30,199 nt of DNA from assembly GCA_965662895.1 (NCBI GenBank), contig CBFIJH010000017.1:1-30199 (forward strand). Reading direction: 5' to 3'. Below, in pieces: positions 19,531 to 30,177 of the stretch. The position numbers were made by a program, and so were the translations under genes. This DNA is from Candidatus Poseidoniaceae archaeon (lineage in GTDB: Archaea; Thermoplasmatota; Poseidoniia; Poseidoniales; Poseidoniaceae). The notes under the pieces are model-generated. The model did no database searches, was not told the origin of the DNA, and saw only the letters and a program-made list of their open reading frames with translations. Numbering within the stretch: position 1 is the stretch's first letter; each line of letters begins with the position of its first letter.

Positions 19531-20550
19531 TCAGCCGAAGAGATCTCCGAGACCGGCGAATCCGCCGCCCTCTTCTTCCTCTTCCTCTTCTTTCTCTTCT
19601 GCCTCGGCTGGGGCATCAGACGCACTTTCAACGACGGCTGCAGCGGATGCTGCTGAAGCAGCGGCACCGAGCATAGCAGCCAGTTCGTCGTCAAGGGCGG
19701 AGGAGTCAAGCGAGCCTGCAATACCCAAAGCACTGCGGTGGGCTCGTCCAAGTAGATGAGGTAGCGTTTCAGCGGTTGTGATCGCTGCCTCAAGTGCAAC
19801 AGCAAGCGCTTCTCCGCTTGCCTTTGCGAGCAATGTTGGCATGGTTTGTGATGTAAACCACGTGATGTTGCAAGCAAGGTTGAATCCACCTGCAGCCATA
19901 CCGATGAGATCTTGCTCGAATTGCTCGTAGTCAATATCGAGTGTCGATGGAGAGAAAACAACGCCATCTTCGTAGGTTCCGCAAAGTCGCAGACCGGTAA
20001 CGATTGGCTTGATTCCGATTTGTCCAAGGAGCATACCGAGGTCGCCCTCGAAAACTTCACCAGCTTTCAGAGCAACGTGTTCCTTCTGGATGTGAACGGA
20101 TCCGCCCATGATCTTTGCAGGAATTCCGACGGAGTTCAAGTCACCAACAATAGGTCCTGGTGGCATACCAGTGTCTTGCTTCTCGACAATGATGTCTTCG
20201 GGAGCGATGTCACCAGGCTTTGCAGCACGACCAGCTTCGGTTTTCTTCAATTCTGAGAAAACTTCGAATGAGTTGTACTTTGATGTGGAAACAACAGCGG
20301 GTTGAACTGCGCCATCGAAGAGTTCTTCGAGAACGGCAACATCTTTCCCTGCCTGTTGCCAAGCAAGGCGCATCAATTGTTTCTTTGCAACGCGGATAGC
20401 CATGTTGTCACGAAGACCTGCTCGCATGCCAATCATGGTGTCAGCAGGAACGCCGTGAATGTCGATGACAGCGAGTGTTTCTCCGCTCTTGATAACGTTG
20501 AGCAAATCCTCAACTGTGTCACGCTTCCATGACATAACCTTTGGAATCAC
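19531..20550 (-). CDS. rpl10: Ribosomal protein uL10 (P0)
   Basis: AAKPGDIAP.DI...TGMPPGP and GIPAKI motifs, stalk helices, GLGDLFG end; GTG start overlaps the rpl1 stop (GTGA) with a GAGGTG SD. Confidence 0.97.
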   Translation of the reverse strand: MIPKVMSWKRDTVEDLLNVIKSGETLAVIDIHGVPADTMIGMRAGLRDNMAIRVAKKQLMRLAWQQAGKDVAVLEELFDGAVQPAVVSTSKYNSFEVFSELKKTEAGRAAKPGDIAPEDIIVEKQDTGMPPGPIVGDLNSVGIPAKIMGGSVHIQKEHVALKAGEVFEGDLGMLLGQIGIKPIVTGLRLCGTYEDGVVFSPSTLDIDYEQFEQDLIGMAAGGFNLACNITWFTSQTMPTLLAKASGEALAVALEAAITTAETLPHLLGRAHRSALGIAGSLDSSALDDELAAMLGAAASAASAAAVVESASDAPAEAEEKEEEEEEEGGGFAGLGDLFG

Positions 20551-21191
20551 AGAACCACCTCGACTCGGGTTGATGGTCCCATCGTCGTCTTAACAAAGAG
20601 GGATCGAATGTTGCCTGCACCACGCTCGAGACGTCCAACAACACGGTTGTAGACTTCCATAGCGTTTGCAAGGAGTTCTTCTTGGGATTGCTCAACGGTT
20701 CCAATAACAACGTGGAACGTCATCTTATCACCAGACTTGACGACAACGGTGGTTTGCAACCCTGTGGCAAGAGCGCCTGGGTCAAGCGTTGGTGGAACTG
20801 GACGAGGCATCTTTCCTCGTGGCCCGAGAACGGTACCGAGGTAACGTCCAATCAATCCCATGTGAGGGACTTCGGAGAGGAAGAAGTCGAATTGGTTAGC
20901 AATCTTCTTTGCACGACCCTTGTTTCCACCAAGTTCTTCAATTTCTGGAGGCGTAATGACGTGGATTCCAGCGTCACGGGCACGTGTTGCTGCTTCGCCA
21001 GCTGCGAACATTGCAATCTTGACTTCACGACCACGGCCGGAAGGAAGACGAATTTCTTCCTTGATACGGTTGGTTGGATTCTTCAAGTCGACATCCTTGA
21101 TGGTAAAGGCAATGTCAACCGATTGTACGAATTTGCGCTCTGGCGCGTCTTCGATGGCTTGCTTGATGGCGGTGTTGATGTTTTCTTCCAT
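20547..21191 (-). CDS. rpl1: Ribosomal protein uL1
   Basis: RKFVQSVD, LGPRGKMPRP and VKTTMGP motifs. Confidence 0.98.
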   Translation of the reverse strand: MEENINTAIKQAIEDAPERKFVQSVDIAFTIKDVDLKNPTNRIKEEIRLPSGRGREVKIAMFAAGEAATRARDAGIHVITPPEIEELGGNKGRAKKIANQFDFFLSEVPHMGLIGRYLGTVLGPRGKMPRPVPPTLDPGALATGLQTTVVVKSGDKMTFHVVIGTVEQSQEELLANAMEVYNRVVGRLERGAGNIRSLFVKTTMGPSTRVEVVL

Positions 21192-21197
21192 ATCGTC

Positions 21198-21234
21198 TCA
21201 CCTCTGCAGTCAGCGAGGCTTTCGCCTCTCCTGC
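21198..21234 (-). promoter_or_regulatory. Putative uL1-binding translational operator abutting the rpl1 SD
   Basis: mRNA reads GCAG-GA-GAGGC-GAAA-GCCUC-GCUGA-CUGC-A-GAGGUGA: two helices, an asymmetric internal loop and a GNRA cap, then the SD. Confidence 0.72.
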
Positions 21235-21250
21235 GGTTCGTGATGTTTGT

Positions 21251-21532
21251 TCAGTTAAAGCGCTCGTCCCATTCTCCTTTGCTAATGATTTCGAGGGCTT
21301 CGTTAGCCCAGTGACCTTCGACTTTGACTCTCATTGAGACACAGGTTCCGATGACTTCTCGGGTCTGTGCCTTGAGGTCGGCTCCAGTCAGGTGGCCGAG
21401 TTCTGCCTTTTCCCGAGCAACGTTCATTGCTTGTTCAAGGGTCAGGTTTTCGACTGCGGCGTCGAGACTTCCATTGCACTTCTGTACACCGAGTTGCTTG
21501 ATAATCAGCTTCGAGGTCCATGGCTTTGGCAT
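21251..21532 (-). CDS. rpl11: Ribosomal protein uL11, C-terminal rRNA-binding domain only (93 aa)
   Basis: PWTSKLIIKQLG, NLTLEQAMNVA, KAQTREVIGTCVSMRVKVEG and GEWD match the archaeal uL11 CTD; canonical position upstream of rpl1. Confidence 0.88.
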   Translation of the reverse strand: MPKPWTSKLIIKQLGVQKCNGSLDAAVENLTLEQAMNVAREKAELGHLTGADLKAQTREVIGTCVSMRVKVEGHWANEALEIISKGEWDERFN

Positions 21533-21585
21533 CGTGTCTCAACTCCTTCCATACGAACGTAGGCATCCCTCCGACCAAACTCCCC

Positions 21586-21597
21586 TATTTAATCGCG
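21586..21597 (-). promoter_or_regulatory. Putative BRE/TATA of the rpl11-rpl1-rpl10-rpl12 operon
   Basis: CGCGA-TTAAATA on the minus strand about 55 nt upstream of the rpl11 ATG, with GGAG SD between. Confidence 0.55.
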
Positions 21598-21695
21598 ACG
21601 CGGCTTATGGCTTTTCCAATTGTTCGTAAATTTCGTGCTTTTCTGTCAAAACAGCGTACCAATTTGCTTATACGAGCACCTTACGAGGCAGTGGT

Positions 21696-24002
21696 ATGAA
21701 CACACTCACACGCAGTGTTGGAATTGTCCTTGTTGCTCTCATGGTGCTAACGCTTCCGACCATGGAAGGAAAACAGAACGGAATTCACAACCAAGCAGGA
21801 AGTGGATGCACGTGCCACTACGGCAGCAGTGCTACCCTGAGCGAAAACTTCCCTTCCACTTACACGGGAGGACAAACGTACACCATCCAAATCTCTGTTT
21901 CCGGAGGCGTTTCCGGTAGCAATGGCGGGTTCAACGTTGTGGTCGACAAAGGAACGTTGTCTGTCCCAGGTATTGGAACCATGTCCGTGAAGATCGACAG
22001 TTCTGGCCAATCCGCCACGCACACAACCAACTCGTACCGCTCATGGTCGTTTGACTGGACTGCACCCTCCGCAGGAAGCGGAACAACAAATGTCGACATT
22101 GCAGTTTTGACTGCAAATGGTAACAGTGCTTCAAACGGTGATGGTTGGACGAGCACCTCAATCACCGTCCCAGAAGCAGGCCCATCCAACACTGCACCAA
22201 CTGCATCGAACGTGTACATCAGCGATACTGTCGATATCTCAACAGCGATAACACAAGCGTACTATGATGTTGATTTGTTGAGCAATTACGATTTCGACGA
22301 TGTGGATGGTGATGCAGAGTCGGGTACAGAAATCCGATGGATGCGCGGTGGAACGACCATGACGCAATACAATGACATGGACTTGCTCAGCAACAGTGCA
22401 ACCTCGATTGGAGACATATGGACAATCTCGATCACGCCAGGTGACGGAACAGATCTTGGCACGAAAGTTACCTCTTCAAACTCCGTGGAAATCATCGATT
22501 ACGATACGGATGGGGACGGATATGGTGACCAATCCGATGCGTTCCCGAACGATGAAAACGAATGGGCAGACTCGGACAGCGATGGTGTCGGCGACAATGC
22601 CGATGCATTCCCGAACGATTCTACCGAAACGATGGATTCCGATAGCGACGGTGTCGGTGATAATGCCGATGCATTCCCGAACGATTCTACGGAAACAACG
22701 GATTCCGACAGTGACGGTGTCGGTGACAATGCTGATGCATTCCCGAACGATGCAACTGAAACAACGGATTCCGACAGCGACGGTGTCGGTGACAATGCCG
22801 ATGCTTTCCCGAACGATTCTACCGAAACGATGGATTCCGACAGTGATGGTGTCGGCAACAACGCTGATGCATTCCCGAACGATTCAACGGAAACTACGGA
22901 TTCCGATAGCGACGGTGTTGGTGACAATGCTGATGCATTCCCGAACGATTCTACGGAAACAATGGATTCGGACAGTGATGGTGTCGGCAACAATGCTGAT
23001 GCGTTCCCGAACGATGCTTCTGAGACGATGGATTCCGACAGTGATGGTGTTGGAGACAATGCCGATGCTTTCCCAAGCGATCCGACCGAAACGATGGACA
23101 GCGATGGGGACACGGTTGGTGACAATGCTGATGCGTTCCCGAACGATGCCAGCGAATCAAGCGATGCTGACGAAGACATGATTGGCGATAACGCCGACAC
23201 GGACGACGACAATGATGGTCTCCTTGATACGGAAGAGGCGACGATTGGAACCGATCCCTTCGATGAGGATACCGATGGTGACGATGTCAACGATAAGGAC
23301 GATGCTCTGCCTCTCGATGCAACAGAGACCATCGATTCGGATGGTGATGGAATAGGCGATAATGCCGACACGGACGATGATAACGATGGCCTGTTTGATC
23401 TCGTTGAGCTTGCGAAAGGAACGGACGTACTCGATTCCGATTCCGATGATGACGGTGTTCTCGATGGCGAAGATGTGTTCCCGCTTGATGGTACAGAATC
23501 TGTTGATTCCGACAATGATGGCGTCGGCGACAATGCTGATGCGTTCCCGAACGACCCTCTTGAAACACTCGATTCGGATATGGATGGTGTTGGCGACAAT
23601 GCTGACGCCTTCCCTGAAGATGACAGTGAGACCATGGACAGCGATGGAGATGGAATGGGTGACAACGAACAAAAGGCCATGGAAGAGGAAGACGCTAAAC
23701 GAATGCAGTTGATGATTACCATCGGTGTTGTTCTTGTTCTCGCCGCAATTGGAGGCTTACTCTTCATGCGAAGAAACAAAGGCGATGCAATGGAGCCAAA
23801 GGTGACGACACCTCTGCCACAAACCGATGCGATTGAACCTTCACAACCCATGTACGCCACACCGACACCCGAGACTGTTCAGCCAGTGGTCGCAGAACCA
23901 ACCGTTGAAAATCAATGGACGGATGAGAACGGACACACATGGCGACAAATGAGTGATGGAACCACGTTGTGGTGGAATGGAACCGATTGGCAGAATGTTT
24001 AG
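21696..24002 (+). CDS. Membrane-anchored surface protein: reeler/choice-of-anchor-V-like domain, thrombospondin type-3-like Ca-binding repeats, TM helix, Trp-rich tail
   Basis: Signal peptide; GCTCH..YTGGQTYTI..GGFN..WSFDWTAP..ANGN domain; DSDSDGVGDNADAFPND repeats; TM followed by RRNK. Confidence 0.85.
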   Translation: MNTLTRSVGIVLVALMVLTLPTMEGKQNGIHNQAGSGCTCHYGSSATLSENFPSTYTGGQTYTIQISVSGGVSGSNGGFNVVVDKGTLSVPGIGTMSVKIDSSGQSATHTTNSYRSWSFDWTAPSAGSGTTNVDIAVLTANGNSASNGDGWTSTSITVPEAGPSNTAPTASNVYISDTVDISTAITQAYYDVDLLSNYDFDDVDGDAESGTEIRWMRGGTTMTQYNDMDLLSNSATSIGDIWTISITPGDGTDLGTKVTSSNSVEIIDYDTDGDGYGDQSDAFPNDENEWADSDSDGVGDNADAFPNDSTETMDSDSDGVGDNADAFPNDSTETTDSDSDGVGDNADAFPNDATETTDSDSDGVGDNADAFPNDSTETMDSDSDGVGNNADAFPNDSTETTDSDSDGVGDNADAFPNDSTETMDSDSDGVGNNADAFPNDASETMDSDSDGVGDNADAFPSDPTETMDSDGDTVGDNADAFPNDASESSDADEDMIGDNADTDDDNDGLLDTEEATIGTDPFDEDTDGDDVNDKDDALPLDATETIDSDGDGIGDNADTDDDNDGLFDLVELAKGTDVLDSDSDDDGVLDGEDVFPLDGTESVDSDNDGVGDNADAFPNDPLETLDSDMDGVGDNADAFPEDDSETMDSDGDGMGDNEQKAMEEEDAKRMQLMITIGVVLVLAAIGGLLFMRRNKGDAMEPKVTTPLPQTDAIEPSQPMYATPTPETVQPVVAEPTVENQWTDENGHTWRQMSDGTTLWWNGTDWQNV
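22503..23665 (+). repeat. Coding tandem repeat, 66-nt/22-aa unit (about 10 contiguous units, two longer variant units, then about 2.5 more)
   Basis: gc.ttccc motif recurs at 22605, 22671, 22737, 22803, 22869, 22935, 23001, 23067 and 23133, with mostly synonymous variation. Confidence 0.95.
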
Positions 24003-24046: not shown

Positions 24047-24841
24047 ATGGCCATAATCCATCTCAGTAATCTGAGCCGCCATTACGGTGAGGATGAAACA
24101 CTTGTCAAAGCGCTCGATGATATTTCTCTGACCATTGAAGAGGGGGAAATAGTGGCCCTTCTTGGCCCATCTGGATCTGGGAAAACAACGTTGCTCAACA
24201 CCATTGCAGCGCTCGATATTCCGACCAACGGAACGTACACGTTCAATGGTGAGCGTGTACCGCTTGGGCACGTCGAAAACATGACAACGTTTCGACGTGA
24301 AAATGTGGGCTACATTTTCCAATTTTTCAATCTCTTAGCCGATCTTACAGCGCTTGAGAATGTCCTCCTCGTTCAGGATTTAGCCGGCGCTCGAGACAAA
24401 CAAAAGGCATTGGATTTGCTCGATTCGGTTGGTCTTCGTGGGCTTGAAGACCGCTTCCCTTCGCAGATGTCTGGCGGTCAGCGGCAACGTGTTGCTATCG
24501 CTCGAGCTCTCGCAAAAAGCCCACGGATTATTCTCGGGGATGAATTGACTGGAAATCTCGATTCAGAAACGTCGAACATGGTCATGGAAGCCCTCGTCAA
24601 AACCTGCCGAAAAGAGAAGATGACAACCATCTTCGTCACTCACGACCAATCGCTCACTCGATTTGCAACACGTATCGTTCATCTCGACAGTGGGAAGATT
24701 GTCGAGGATGAGTCCGGTGGTCTGAAGAGCATCGCTATGACGGCCAAGCACACAGCAGAATCGGTTGTTGACAACACGGTTGACAGCGTCAAGAAAATCG
24801 GTTCGAAGATCAAAGATATGGCCCATTCAATGTTGGAGTGA
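24047..24841 (+). CDS. ABC transporter ATP-binding protein (LolD/MacB type)
   Basis: GPSGSGKTT, FQFFNL, MSGGQRQRVAIARAL, ILGDELTGNLD and VTHD motifs. Confidence 0.95.
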   Translation: MAIIHLSNLSRHYGEDETLVKALDDISLTIEEGEIVALLGPSGSGKTTLLNTIAALDIPTNGTYTFNGERVPLGHVENMTTFRRENVGYIFQFFNLLADLTALENVLLVQDLAGARDKQKALDLLDSVGLRGLEDRFPSQMSGGQRQRVAIARALAKSPRIILGDELTGNLDSETSNMVMEALVKTCRKEKMTTIFVTHDQSLTRFATRIVHLDSGKIVEDESGGLKSIAMTAKHTAESVVDNTVDSVKKIGSKIKDMAHSMLE

Positions 24842-27216
24842 AGGACTTGAACACGCTCTTGTTACGACGTTTGTCGCGTAGTTTAATGCGCACCAAACTG
24901 CGTATTCTTACAGTGGTTCTGCTGATCACAATCTCGGTCTATGCAGGCATCGTATTCTCGGAACATTCCAGGAATGCTGACCGCGTTTACGATGATTTCT
25001 ATGCTGAAACGAATTTTGCTGATCTTATGGCAACAAGTTACGATGTTGTCCACAAAGACAACCTCACCAACGCATGTGCCTCCATCGATCATCAAGGTTG
25101 TGAATCCAGTCTCATTCTTTCAGGACAATCACGAACCTCGAGCGAATGGATTGCATCAAAGTTCTATGGAATTGAACAAGGCGAAGTCAATACCTTGTGG
25201 ACGGTTGAAGGAGATTCAACACCCTCTGCTGGCGAAGTTCTTGTTGATGCCCACTTTGCCTTGAACGATGAAATCAACATGAAACTCGGCGATAGCTTCG
25301 AAATTCTTGTTGGTGAAGGTGGTGTTCAAACCTTCACTGTCGTCGGATTTGTCAACAGCCCATTGGAATTGTTTTATGCCAATCCTGATTCAATTCTGCC
25401 CCAAGAATCGAGTTATGTTGTCGCCTATTTTGATGTTGAAGTACTGGCAGACGCATCTGGAAACGACGCTTTTGCCCGGAACACGCTGAACATCGATTTG
25501 GTCGGCACGCCGAACTTTGATTTGAGCAATACCGAAGAAAACGAAGGCGTTGAATTGCAGCGAACAAAAGACGCTCTCCAACAGGCGATGAATGAATCTG
25601 AAGCAGATGGATACGTTCTCGATCGCGGTCAACTCAGTGCTGAATTGCTGCGTTTGGACAAAGACAGTTTGTCCAATTCAATTCCGTTCATTTTAGGAAT
25701 TCTTTTGTTCATTAGTGGCCTTGTGATTGCGGTCTCACTCGATCGATTGATTCGAACACAATCCCGTGAAATCGCAGTGTTAAGAACCATCGGTGCTTCA
25801 ACAGGTGACGTCATGACAGGGTACTTGTTGGTACCACTGGTCCTTGGCGTTCCAGGGGTTTTGCTCGGAATTCTGCTGGGTATTTCTTCGATCGGTTCGG
25901 GTGCATTCACAGCCTTTTACTTCTCATTCCTCGGCATACCCGTGGTAACGACGCATCACTATCTCGACATCATTGCAACCATCTCACTTTCCGCCTTGTT
26001 CATCACCTTCTTGTTTGGTATTCGTCCAGCCTGGAAGGCTGCTCGACTGCAACCACTCGACATTCTGGGTCAAGGTTCGGACAAAAAACCAAACCGGATT
26101 CTGACAAAAATTACCTCAGCGTTTCCTCCTGGTATTGGTCTTGGTCTGCGCTCGACCTTCCGCAAGCCTGCTCGTTTGCTTGCAACCTTGCTCGCCCTTT
26201 CGCTCGCTATGGTGATTCTCGGAGGCAACATGATGTTTGTTGCAGGGTTCACTGGAGCCTTTTCAGAAGCGACCGATGCTCAAGAAAACTGGGAATACCA
26301 AATCGCTGCCTTCCCATCTGGACTTGAGAACATCACGGAATGGGCACAAGAAAACACAACGTCGTTTGAGCTAACGTTGGTCGCACAAGCAACCATCAGC
26401 GGTACAACCAAAGCAATTGACCTCAAAGGCAACGATGTTCTTTCTGAAAACGACGATGCATTGCATCGATTAAATCTGCTTCAAGGTGGACTCCCGGTTT
26501 TAGGACAAACACCTGTTCAAGGCATTTTGGATGAGGGATCAGCGGAACTTGAAGGATACGCTGTGGGAGATACCATCAGCATCGAATTTGAGGGCGAGCA
26601 GCATACCATCGAAGTTGTAGGTATCGCTCGAGAGCTTAGCAGATCGATCTACATGCATCGAACCGATGCACAACCGATTGTCGGTGAAGAAGCAAACGGA
26701 GCACTGCTCGTGACCAAAGATGGAGCGAGCATCGAGGACATTCGATTCTCAACCGTTTCAATTGTTGAGAAAGAAATCATGGTTGCAACGTTTGAAGAAC
26801 TGATTGAACAACAAAAAGCAATCATGCAATCCATCTACGTTCTTGGAGCATTGATGGCCATTGCGATTCTCTTCAACACATTGCTCATCAATCTGAGCGA
26901 ACGTGATGCAGAACTCGCCACACTACGCGTTCTTGGCGCCAGCCGAACGCGCTTGGCGATCATCCTAACCGTTGAACACATGTTCATCGGTCTCGTTGGT
27001 GGATTTGCGGGAGCGCTCGCAAGCGTTGGATTCTACTCCGGTGTTGCAGGCGTATCCTCTACCTGGGTGTTCCATATTCCTGTCGTCATAGACTACACTG
27101 TTTTCTCGCAAATCATCGGCTTCGTTTTGTTTGCGGCATTGTTGACAACACCCGTCGGCGTGTACCGAATCGGTCGCATGAACCTGCTCGAAGTTGTCGC
27201 TCGACACGAGCGATGA
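24838..27216 (+). CDS. ABC transporter permease, duplicated FtsX/MacB type
   Basis: Two halves with REIAVLRTIGAS and ELATLRVLGAS motifs and large extracytoplasmic loops; GTGA overlap with the ATPase gene. Confidence 0.92.
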   Translation: MKDLNTLLLRRLSRSLMRTKLRILTVVLLITISVYAGIVFSEHSRNADRVYDDFYAETNFADLMATSYDVVHKDNLTNACASIDHQGCESSLILSGQSRTSSEWIASKFYGIEQGEVNTLWTVEGDSTPSAGEVLVDAHFALNDEINMKLGDSFEILVGEGGVQTFTVVGFVNSPLELFYANPDSILPQESSYVVAYFDVEVLADASGNDAFARNTLNIDLVGTPNFDLSNTEENEGVELQRTKDALQQAMNESEADGYVLDRGQLSAELLRLDKDSLSNSIPFILGILLFISGLVIAVSLDRLIRTQSREIAVLRTIGASTGDVMTGYLLVPLVLGVPGVLLGILLGISSIGSGAFTAFYFSFLGIPVVTTHHYLDIIATISLSALFITFLFGIRPAWKAARLQPLDILGQGSDKKPNRILTKITSAFPPGIGLGLRSTFRKPARLLATLLALSLAMVILGGNMMFVAGFTGAFSEATDAQENWEYQIAAFPSGLENITEWAQENTTSFELTLVAQATISGTTKAIDLKGNDVLSENDDALHRLNLLQGGLPVLGQTPVQGILDEGSAELEGYAVGDTISIEFEGEQHTIEVVGIARELSRSIYMHRTDAQPIVGEEANGALLVTKDGASIEDIRFSTVSIVEKEIMVATFEELIEQQKAIMQSIYVLGALMAIAILFNTLLINLSERDAELATLRVLGASRTRLAIILTVEHMFIGLVGGFAGALASVGFYSGVAGVSSTWVFHIPVVIDYTVFSQIIGFVLFAALLTTPVGVYRIGRMNLLEVVARHER

Positions 27217-27250: not shown

Positions 27251-27652
27251 ATGCAACGGGTCATCGTTTCCATTTCGCTCATTCTCATCCTCTTCACTGC
27301 AGGTTGTACATCGTCATCCGAGAACTGGGAACGGGTCGATGTCGAAACGTTTGAAGCATCCATTGAATCCAATCCAAATGCGCTACTCCTTGATGTTCGG
27401 ACCCAAACCGAATGGGAGCAAGACGGGCATCTTGAGAACGCAACGTTGATCCCACATTCGGACTTAGAATCTCGATCGGATGAATTGCCTGAAGACAAAA
27501 ACGAGCTTATCTTGTTGTACTGTCGAAGCGGCAACCGTTCACAAGATGCAGCGAACACGCTTCTGGACTTGGGCTACACCAACATCGTTGAACTCAAGAC
27601 AGGTATCAATGGCTGGAAGAATGCCGACAAGCCGGTTTTGTATGGTGAGTGA
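27251..27652 (+). CDS. Rhodanese-domain lipoprotein
   Basis: Lipobox FTAGC; LLDVRT..EW..GHL and YCRSGNRS active loop. Confidence 0.9.
   Translation: MQRVIVSISLILILFTAGCTSSSENWERVDVETFEASIESNPNALLLDVRTQTEWEQDGHLENATLIPHSDLESRSDELPEDKNELILLYCRSGNRSQDAANTLLDLGYTNIVELKTGINGWKNADKPVLYGE

Positions 27653-27970: not shown

Positions 27971-30177
<2,207 letters not shown>

Follow-up and report, generated by a model that had tools for sequence, protein, structure and literature searches.

We present evidence that the order Poseidoniales possesses a form of the ribosomal protein uL11 that consists of the RNA-anchoring domain only, and we consider it probable, at roughly 0.85, that these archaea translate with a GTPase-associated centre that is naturally devoid of the uL11 N-terminal domain (N-domain). 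This domain is regarded as a universal part of the GTPase-associated centre: it shifts position in every factor cycle, touches the factors for elongation, initiation and release, and provides the thiopeptide pocket. To our knowledge, it is present in every other studied ribosome. Here an entire order, abundant across the globe, naturally has a universal ribosomal protein reduced to one domain out of two. We found no description of such a uL11 truncation in searches of the full-text literature.

The window, i.e. the whole 30,199-nucleotide stretch of archaeal DNA that we analyzed, carries on its reverse (-) strand a uL11 gene coding for the C-terminal rRNA-binding domain alone (21251..21532; stop codon 21251-21253, ATG 21530-21532). 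Its 93-aa product begins with MPKPWTSKLI, and an in-frame TGA on the same strand (21539..21541), three codons before the ATG, closes the frame at a stop-to-stop length of 95 aa. This short uL11 stands at the head of an operon with the order uL11-uL1-uL10(P0)-P1 on the - strand, in which it is followed by the gene for uL1 (20547..21191; PF00687, 155.7 bits), that for the 339-aa uL10/P0 stalk protein with its insertion domain present (19531..20550; PF00466 and PF17777), and that for the stalk protein P1, the archaeal L12 (19195..19500; PF00428, 64.2 bits). On the other side of uL11, the list of open reading frames places a divergent gene on the + strand (21696..24002; ATG at 21696), leaving a spacer of 163 nt (21533-21695), which cannot hold about 65 codons; hence, the room upstream of uL11 is too small for an N-domain. 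An earlier note on this DNA had described a 93-aa ORF beginning near the interdomain linker, along with the in-frame TGA, a GGAG Shine-Dalgarno motif, a TTAAATA box and a spacer of about 160 nt; each of these elements is present where that note had placed it, and the start aligns with the GTPP linker of full-length uL11.

The product of the divergent gene is 768 aa long, opens like a signal peptide, and has a C-terminal hydrophobic stretch and more than ten near-identical Asp-rich repeats (DSDSDGVGDNADAFPND). These repeats resemble bacterial thrombospondin type 3 repeats, with a score against the TSP3_bac model (24.9 bits) just below the 25-bit cut-off. Further along the + strand, ordinary neighbours encode an ABC ATPase and FtsX/MacB-type permease pair (24047-27216), a rhodanese-domain protein (27251-27652) and a 715-aa haem peroxidase-family protein (28030-30177).

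A Pfam search with the 93-aa product recovered only PF00298 (Ribosomal_L11) with 40.1 bits, above the cut-off of 21.4 bits, with residues 3-71 spanning profile positions 2-69 of 69, and did not find PF03946, the N-terminal factor-facing domain. Against the NCBIfam archaeal L11 equivalog NF002232, the protein matched profile positions 71-158 of 164 with 64.3 bits, below the cut-off of 162, which a uL11 from the sister family passes with 176.6 bits; this shortfall fits the name 'hypothetical protein [Candidatus Poseidoniales archaeon]' that its relatives bear at NCBI. A profile built from an alignment of the short proteins aligns with residues 70-158 of Pyrococcus furiosus L11P (4v6u_BH, E 1.6e-23) and with residues 71-158 of Methanocaldococcus jannaschii L11, and in the same alignment the start of the short protein is level with the GTPP interdomain linker of the 156-aa uL11 from other families of the class. 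The AlphaFold2 model built on this alignment has a mean pLDDT of 91, and its best Foldseek match is M. jannaschii L11 from a stalk-base crystal structure (5d8h_C; TMq 0.86, rmsd 1.6 Å over 92 columns, 38% identity). Also among the matches were 1hc8_B (TMt 0.83) and 1mms_B, 70-residue L11 chains solved with an rRNA fragment. The 93-aa ORF is the whole uL11 C-terminal RNA-binding domain with the archaeal C-terminal tail, and contains none of the N-domain. Columns common to short and full-length uL11 stay conserved in the alignment, which also revealed an order-specific KCNGS loop in the short C-domain where full-length uL11 has KGSG.

We observed the same condition throughout the order. Among 41 Poseidoniales genomes (the window's own, 24 of the same genus, 2 of family f2 and 14 of family f3), PF03946 rose above its cut-off in none, the best weak match being 14.6 bits. 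PF00298 was detected in 33 of the 41 and in 18/18 high-quality ones, in open frames of 92-127 aa; the eight genomes with no PF00298 match belong to the window's genus and are 57-86% complete. Extending the sample to 121 genomes of the class, we found PF03946 in 0/97 Poseidoniales (0/58 of family f1, 0/38 of f3, and none in the window's own genome), with two single-contig genomes among them, and in 22 of the 24 genomes of the class's other two families (20/22 in f4, 2/2 in f5), where the scores are 72-90 bits save for one match cut by a contig end. Across 201 genomes of the phylum, the domain was found in 0/46 Poseidoniales and in 151/155 genomes of other Thermoplasmatota families. All 30 Poseidoniales loci that we fetched, each from a different species genome, contain a uL11 ORF of 90-100 aa with the same alignment start, the protein opening with M-PKPW in families f1 and f2 and with M-SARN, M-SARG or M-SDNW in f3. 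Likewise, the protein database holds 108 relatives of the short uL11 from many sources, nearly all of them 85-98 aa in length and with PF00298 only. Within the sampled Poseidoniales (Marine Group II), the N-domain-less uL11 is order-wide.

Gene order points to how the truncation arose. In six of the eight Poseidoniales loci examined (L012 and L022 of f2; L033, L034, L035 and L042 of f3), the short uL11 lies in the order spt5 - short uL11 - uL1 - P0, with P1 also seen in all four f3 loci, and the gap between the spt5 stop and the short-uL11 ATG is 61-96 nt. Another Thermoplasmatota genome (L063) has spt5 - full-length uL11 - uL1 - P0 - P1. Since the short uL11 has kept its ancestral position, after spt5 and before uL1, and so little sequence separates it from spt5, the part coding for the N-domain was deleted in place and not moved. 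In the remaining two loci, both of the window's own genus, uL11 stands apart from spt5, a separation that the comparison of gene orders marks as a later rearrangement. In a maximum-likelihood tree of the C-domain (35 rows, 93 columns, rooted only at the midpoint, with identical sequences and three further full-length rows omitted), the 23 distinct short proteins all group in one clade with support of 100/99 beside the full-length relatives; its subgroups follow families f1 and f3, and its stem is long (0.57 + 0.16 changes per site). Judged by operon position and descent, the short gene is a true uL11 ortholog, and the tree topology fits a single loss of the N-domain at the base of Poseidoniales.

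The Spt5 frame of these organisms is also extended: its NGN and KOW domains are preceded by about 135-160 N-terminal residues that match no Pfam family. We observed the extended form in Poseidoniales (contig C6 of the window's own genome, 4336-5247 on the - strand, equivalent to L068:1537-2448; L033:3711-4664) and in the other Thermoplasmatota genome L063 (3199-4038); the Spt5 of sister family f4 is a plain protein of 187 aa. The own-genome frame begins right after secE, and the extension may be translated; in L033 and L063 it was read from stop-to-stop frames, such that the real start may lie further in.

The region upstream of the short gene is likewise shared across the order. Three elements recur at fixed spacing in all three Poseidoniales families: a TATA-like box, a GGTCG motif and a purine-rich Shine-Dalgarno-like stretch. 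In the window (- strand), a TTAAATA box lies about 55-62 nt before the uL11 ATG (21586..21592), a GGTCGG motif about 40-45 nt before it (21571..21576), and a GGAG motif about 10 nt before it (21543..21546). In a comparison of 24 upstream sequences, an A/T-rich box (TTAAATA, CTCAAATA, TTATATA and variants) appeared at the same distance in nearly all, GGTCG in 23, across families f1, f2 and f3, with GGACG in the exception L045, and GGAGG or GGGGG at the Shine-Dalgarno place in most. The TTAAATA element is a putative promoter element of uL11, and the GGTCG motif may belong to the promoter-proximal region of the uL11-uL1 operon or serve its autoregulation. A structured RNA element in the leader was considered and rejected, given that the leader showed no Rfam match above noise and no stable predicted fold (z = +1.3).

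We searched for the N-domain elsewhere in the genome. PF03946 had no match at E<=10 in the window's own genome (92% complete, 26 contigs), and the same search yielded matches in 14/14 control genomes. An HMM of ten sister-family N-domains, run with no filters (--max) against the six-frame translation of that genome, reached a best E of only 3.1. A profile of eight sister N-domains was likewise negative in five Poseidoniales genomes, two of them single-contig and three near-closed, the best E being 0.21 in a 476-aa frame. Three genomes of the same genus gave weak PF03946 matches (13 bits) in an ORF of 156 aa; we treated these as spurious, as this ORF carries an EAMKM motif, which we take to be of the biotin-carrier type. 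In the window's own genome, spt5, which usually precedes uL11, is on contig C6; a leftover N-domain piece behind it was considered and rejected, since an unrelated membrane protein follows directly with nothing between. Upstream frames of the Poseidoniales uL11 loci are neither conserved nor N-domain-like. The absence of the domain from the window's own genome rests partly on the closed relatives, this genome being 92% complete and having no 23S gene in its assembly.

The ribosomal partners of the missing domain show little change. We compared the 58-nt L11-binding RNA of the 23S rRNA (in relatives, e.g. L051:2581-2740) in 51 sequences (36 from Poseidoniales, 11 from other families of the class and 4 from other Thermoplasmatota, with one further sequence omitted). 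The loop sequences of helices 43 and 44 (H43 and H44) are unchanged in the 36 Poseidoniales genomes. One base at the H43-H44 junction, which we take to lie approximately at position 1083 in E. coli numbering, is G in 36/36 Poseidoniales versus U in 15/15 genomes with full-length uL11, and a stem pair in this RNA also covaries. A position numbered 1056 had seemed order-specific among eight sequences and proved not to be diagnostic, being common to 8/10 f4 genomes once 51 sequences were compared. An alignment of P0 from six Poseidoniales and seven others (relatives with full-length uL11) showed no large indel and no lineage-specific insertion, and the idea of a compensating P0 insertion was rejected.

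Directly downstream of P1 lies the gene for P0109 (18519-19112, - strand), a protein of 197 aa that matches neither Pfam nor NCBIfam, carries a conserved CPWRWTFGERS motif and keeps its synteny with the stalk operon in genomes of f1 and f3. Language-model features make it look like a DUF2204/AbiEii-type nucleotidyltransferase-like protein. Its homologs occur in 105 of the 121 genomes of the class, including 20/22 of f4 and 2/2 of f5, and given its presence in these full-length-uL11 families, together with the nucleotidyltransferase-like features, we rejected it as a surrogate for the N-domain.

Several other explanations have to be weighed against the reading of a genuine, order-wide loss. An artefact or decay, be it an assembly error, a pseudogene, a misplaced start, or a full-length uL11 hidden by frameshift or recoding, might be entertained given that the window comes from a metagenome-assembled genome, and that the DNA contigs from other public runs that cover this stretch (21272-21604 and 21575-22400) include no single listed one spanning the whole spacer. 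We give this practically no credence. Public runs from 10 studies contain the stretch or part of it, and contigs from two RNA libraries, which attest to presence and not to transcription, cover the uL11 ORF (21251-21603 and 21196-21673); the contig cover from X16, an rRNA-depleted RNA library, ends at 21605. The contigs from other runs thus cover the ORF with its 5' flank, against the misassembly at 21533-21600 that the earlier note had contemplated. The same ORF with the same start recurs at 30/30 loci, single-contig genomes included, the spacer and the upstream frames offer no N-domain, and the 108 database relatives come from many sources. Moreover, the gene is under purifying selection by the criterion of substitution ratios: the Nei-Gojobori dN/dS of short uL11 ranges from 0.020 to 0.130 among the pairs unsaturated at synonymous sites (8 of 15), the other seven having a pS of at least 0.746 and a pN of 0.078-0.337. 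These values bear out the selection that the earlier note had proposed to gauge by dN/dS, and its comparison of lengths came out the same way, as the close relatives have no full-length orthologs. Taken with the order-wide truncation, the single clade and the conserved leader, this selection upholds both its case against decay and its suggestion of an N-domain-less GTPase-associated centre. Its other suggestion, a split uL11 with the N-domain encoded elsewhere, found no support, the PF03946 and sister-HMM searches of the own genome and of closed or near-closed relatives being negative and the gap behind spt5 in f2 and f3 only 61-96 nt; nor did we find a full-length paralog in the own genome or its Poseidoniales relatives.

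A subtler alternative is that the role of the N-domain is supplied in trans, either by a uL11 N-domain diverged past recognition or by an unrelated lineage-specific protein seated beside the short uL11 on H43/H44. Such a non-homologous or strongly diverged protein would escape sequence searches; the long branch of the short proteins and their KCNGS loop are consistent with a changed environment; and the costliness of uL11 loss in the laboratory, documented in PMC2175356, makes compensation plausible. We nonetheless regard it as quite unlikely, for no N-domain signal emerged in any frame of the own genome or in closed relatives, the ancestral gene order is kept in f2 and f3 with no extra ORF in the short gap, P0 has no insertion, and P0109, the one conserved neighbour tested, also occurs in families with full-length uL11. 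Less probable still, indeed very improbable, is the notion that the short protein has ceased to be a stoichiometric component of the ribosome, acting for instance as a regulator or an assembly factor, and that the mature ribosome is without uL11. Nothing direct favors it beyond the fact that L11-less ribosomes can work, as PMC2175356 indicates, and it sits poorly with a gene that still heads the uL1-P0-P1 operon, retains the entire RNA-binding fold with its shared columns conserved, evolves at a dN/dS of 0.02-0.13 and has a conserved rRNA site.

Returning to the reading that we prefer, we propose that the part of uL11 coding for the N-domain was lost by in-place deletion in the common ancestor of Poseidoniales. 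The remaining 93-aa C-domain would fold alone and bind helices 43/44 of 23S rRNA beside P0, lending stability to this part of the GTPase-associated centre. What such a ribosome would then lack is the surface facing aEF1A, aEF2, aIF5B and the release and rescue factors, along with the thiopeptide (thiostrepton/micrococcin) cleft, which the N-domain and the tips of H43/H44 normally form between them. Recruiting the factors and activating their GTPases would fall to the rRNA loops, which are unchanged, to the sarcin-ricin loop and to the P0-P1 stalk, and low thiopeptide sensitivity would be expected as a by-product. We infer the residence of the short protein in the ribosome, the manner in which the factors cope and the drug insensitivity from these considerations.

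A ribosome of this kind is credible because the C-domain binds RNA autonomously, as the solved 70-residue chains 1hc8_B and 1mms_B attest, and because bacteria and yeast survive, if poorly, without the whole protein: bacteria without L11 and yeast without its ortholog are viable and grow slowly, according to PMC2175356. Thiazole antibiotics target the L11 N-domain together with H43/44 (PMC3505967), and loss of this domain should hence blunt such drugs; the thiopeptide insensitivity of Poseidoniales would be an extrapolation from bacterial and yeast work. Since laboratory strains without uL11 grow poorly, a cost-free natural loss implies compensation, for which we found no candidate beyond the one diagnostic rRNA base, P0 being without an insertion. 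It is conceivable, though we think it improbable, that no protein occupies the N-domain site and that the loss was selected for removing an inhibitor cleft (thiopeptide-like) from the GTPase-associated centre, conferring intrinsic insensitivity, with the junction base and the KCNGS loop as compensating changes.

Set beside known systems, the short protein is orthologous to canonical archaeal uL11 (M. jannaschii 5D8H/5COL; P. furiosus 4V6U), with which it shares the three-helix C-terminal RNA-binding domain, the archaeal tail and, in the f2 and f3 loci, the operon place between spt5 and uL1. The canonical protein has an N-terminal domain of about 65-70 residues (PF03946), all of which is lacking in the Poseidoniales version. 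The closest counterpart in size is the isolated L11 C-domain with 58-nt rRNA (PDB 1HC8), a 70-residue chain of matching fold whose solution with the GTPase-centre RNA supports the ability of the C-domain alone to bind RNA. This chain is a bacterial laboratory construct, whereas in Poseidoniales the single-domain form is naturally encoded and conserved order-wide, and it additionally bears the archaeal C-terminal tail. Translation without uL11 or parts of it also has a parallel in uL11-deficient strains, i.e. thiostrepton-resistant Bacillus megaterium without L11 and yeast without both RPL12 genes, which PMC2175356 describes together with the role of uL11 in governing thiostrepton sensitivity. 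According to the same source, these laboratory mutants have lost the entire protein and grow very poorly, with a doubling time of about 5 h in yeast. In Poseidoniales, by contrast, the N-domain alone is gone, the loss has become fixed across a lineage that is abundant and free-living, and strong purifying selection acts on the remainder of the protein.

These findings have practical consequences for genome analysis. The short uL11 fails the curated L11 model, and its NCBI relatives are accordingly named hypothetical proteins; completeness estimates that use PF03946 as a marker would come out lower in Poseidoniales; and this order leaves half a column block empty in phylogenomic alignments containing uL11. 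More generally, Poseidoniales, as an abundant, free-living order that would have done without the uL11 N-domain throughout its history, offer a natural experiment on what this domain is needed for in archaeal translation, and on what compensates for its loss. Were the reading of a selected loss to prove true, one of the ocean's most abundant archaeal groups would be intrinsically insensitive to thiopeptide-like inhibitors.
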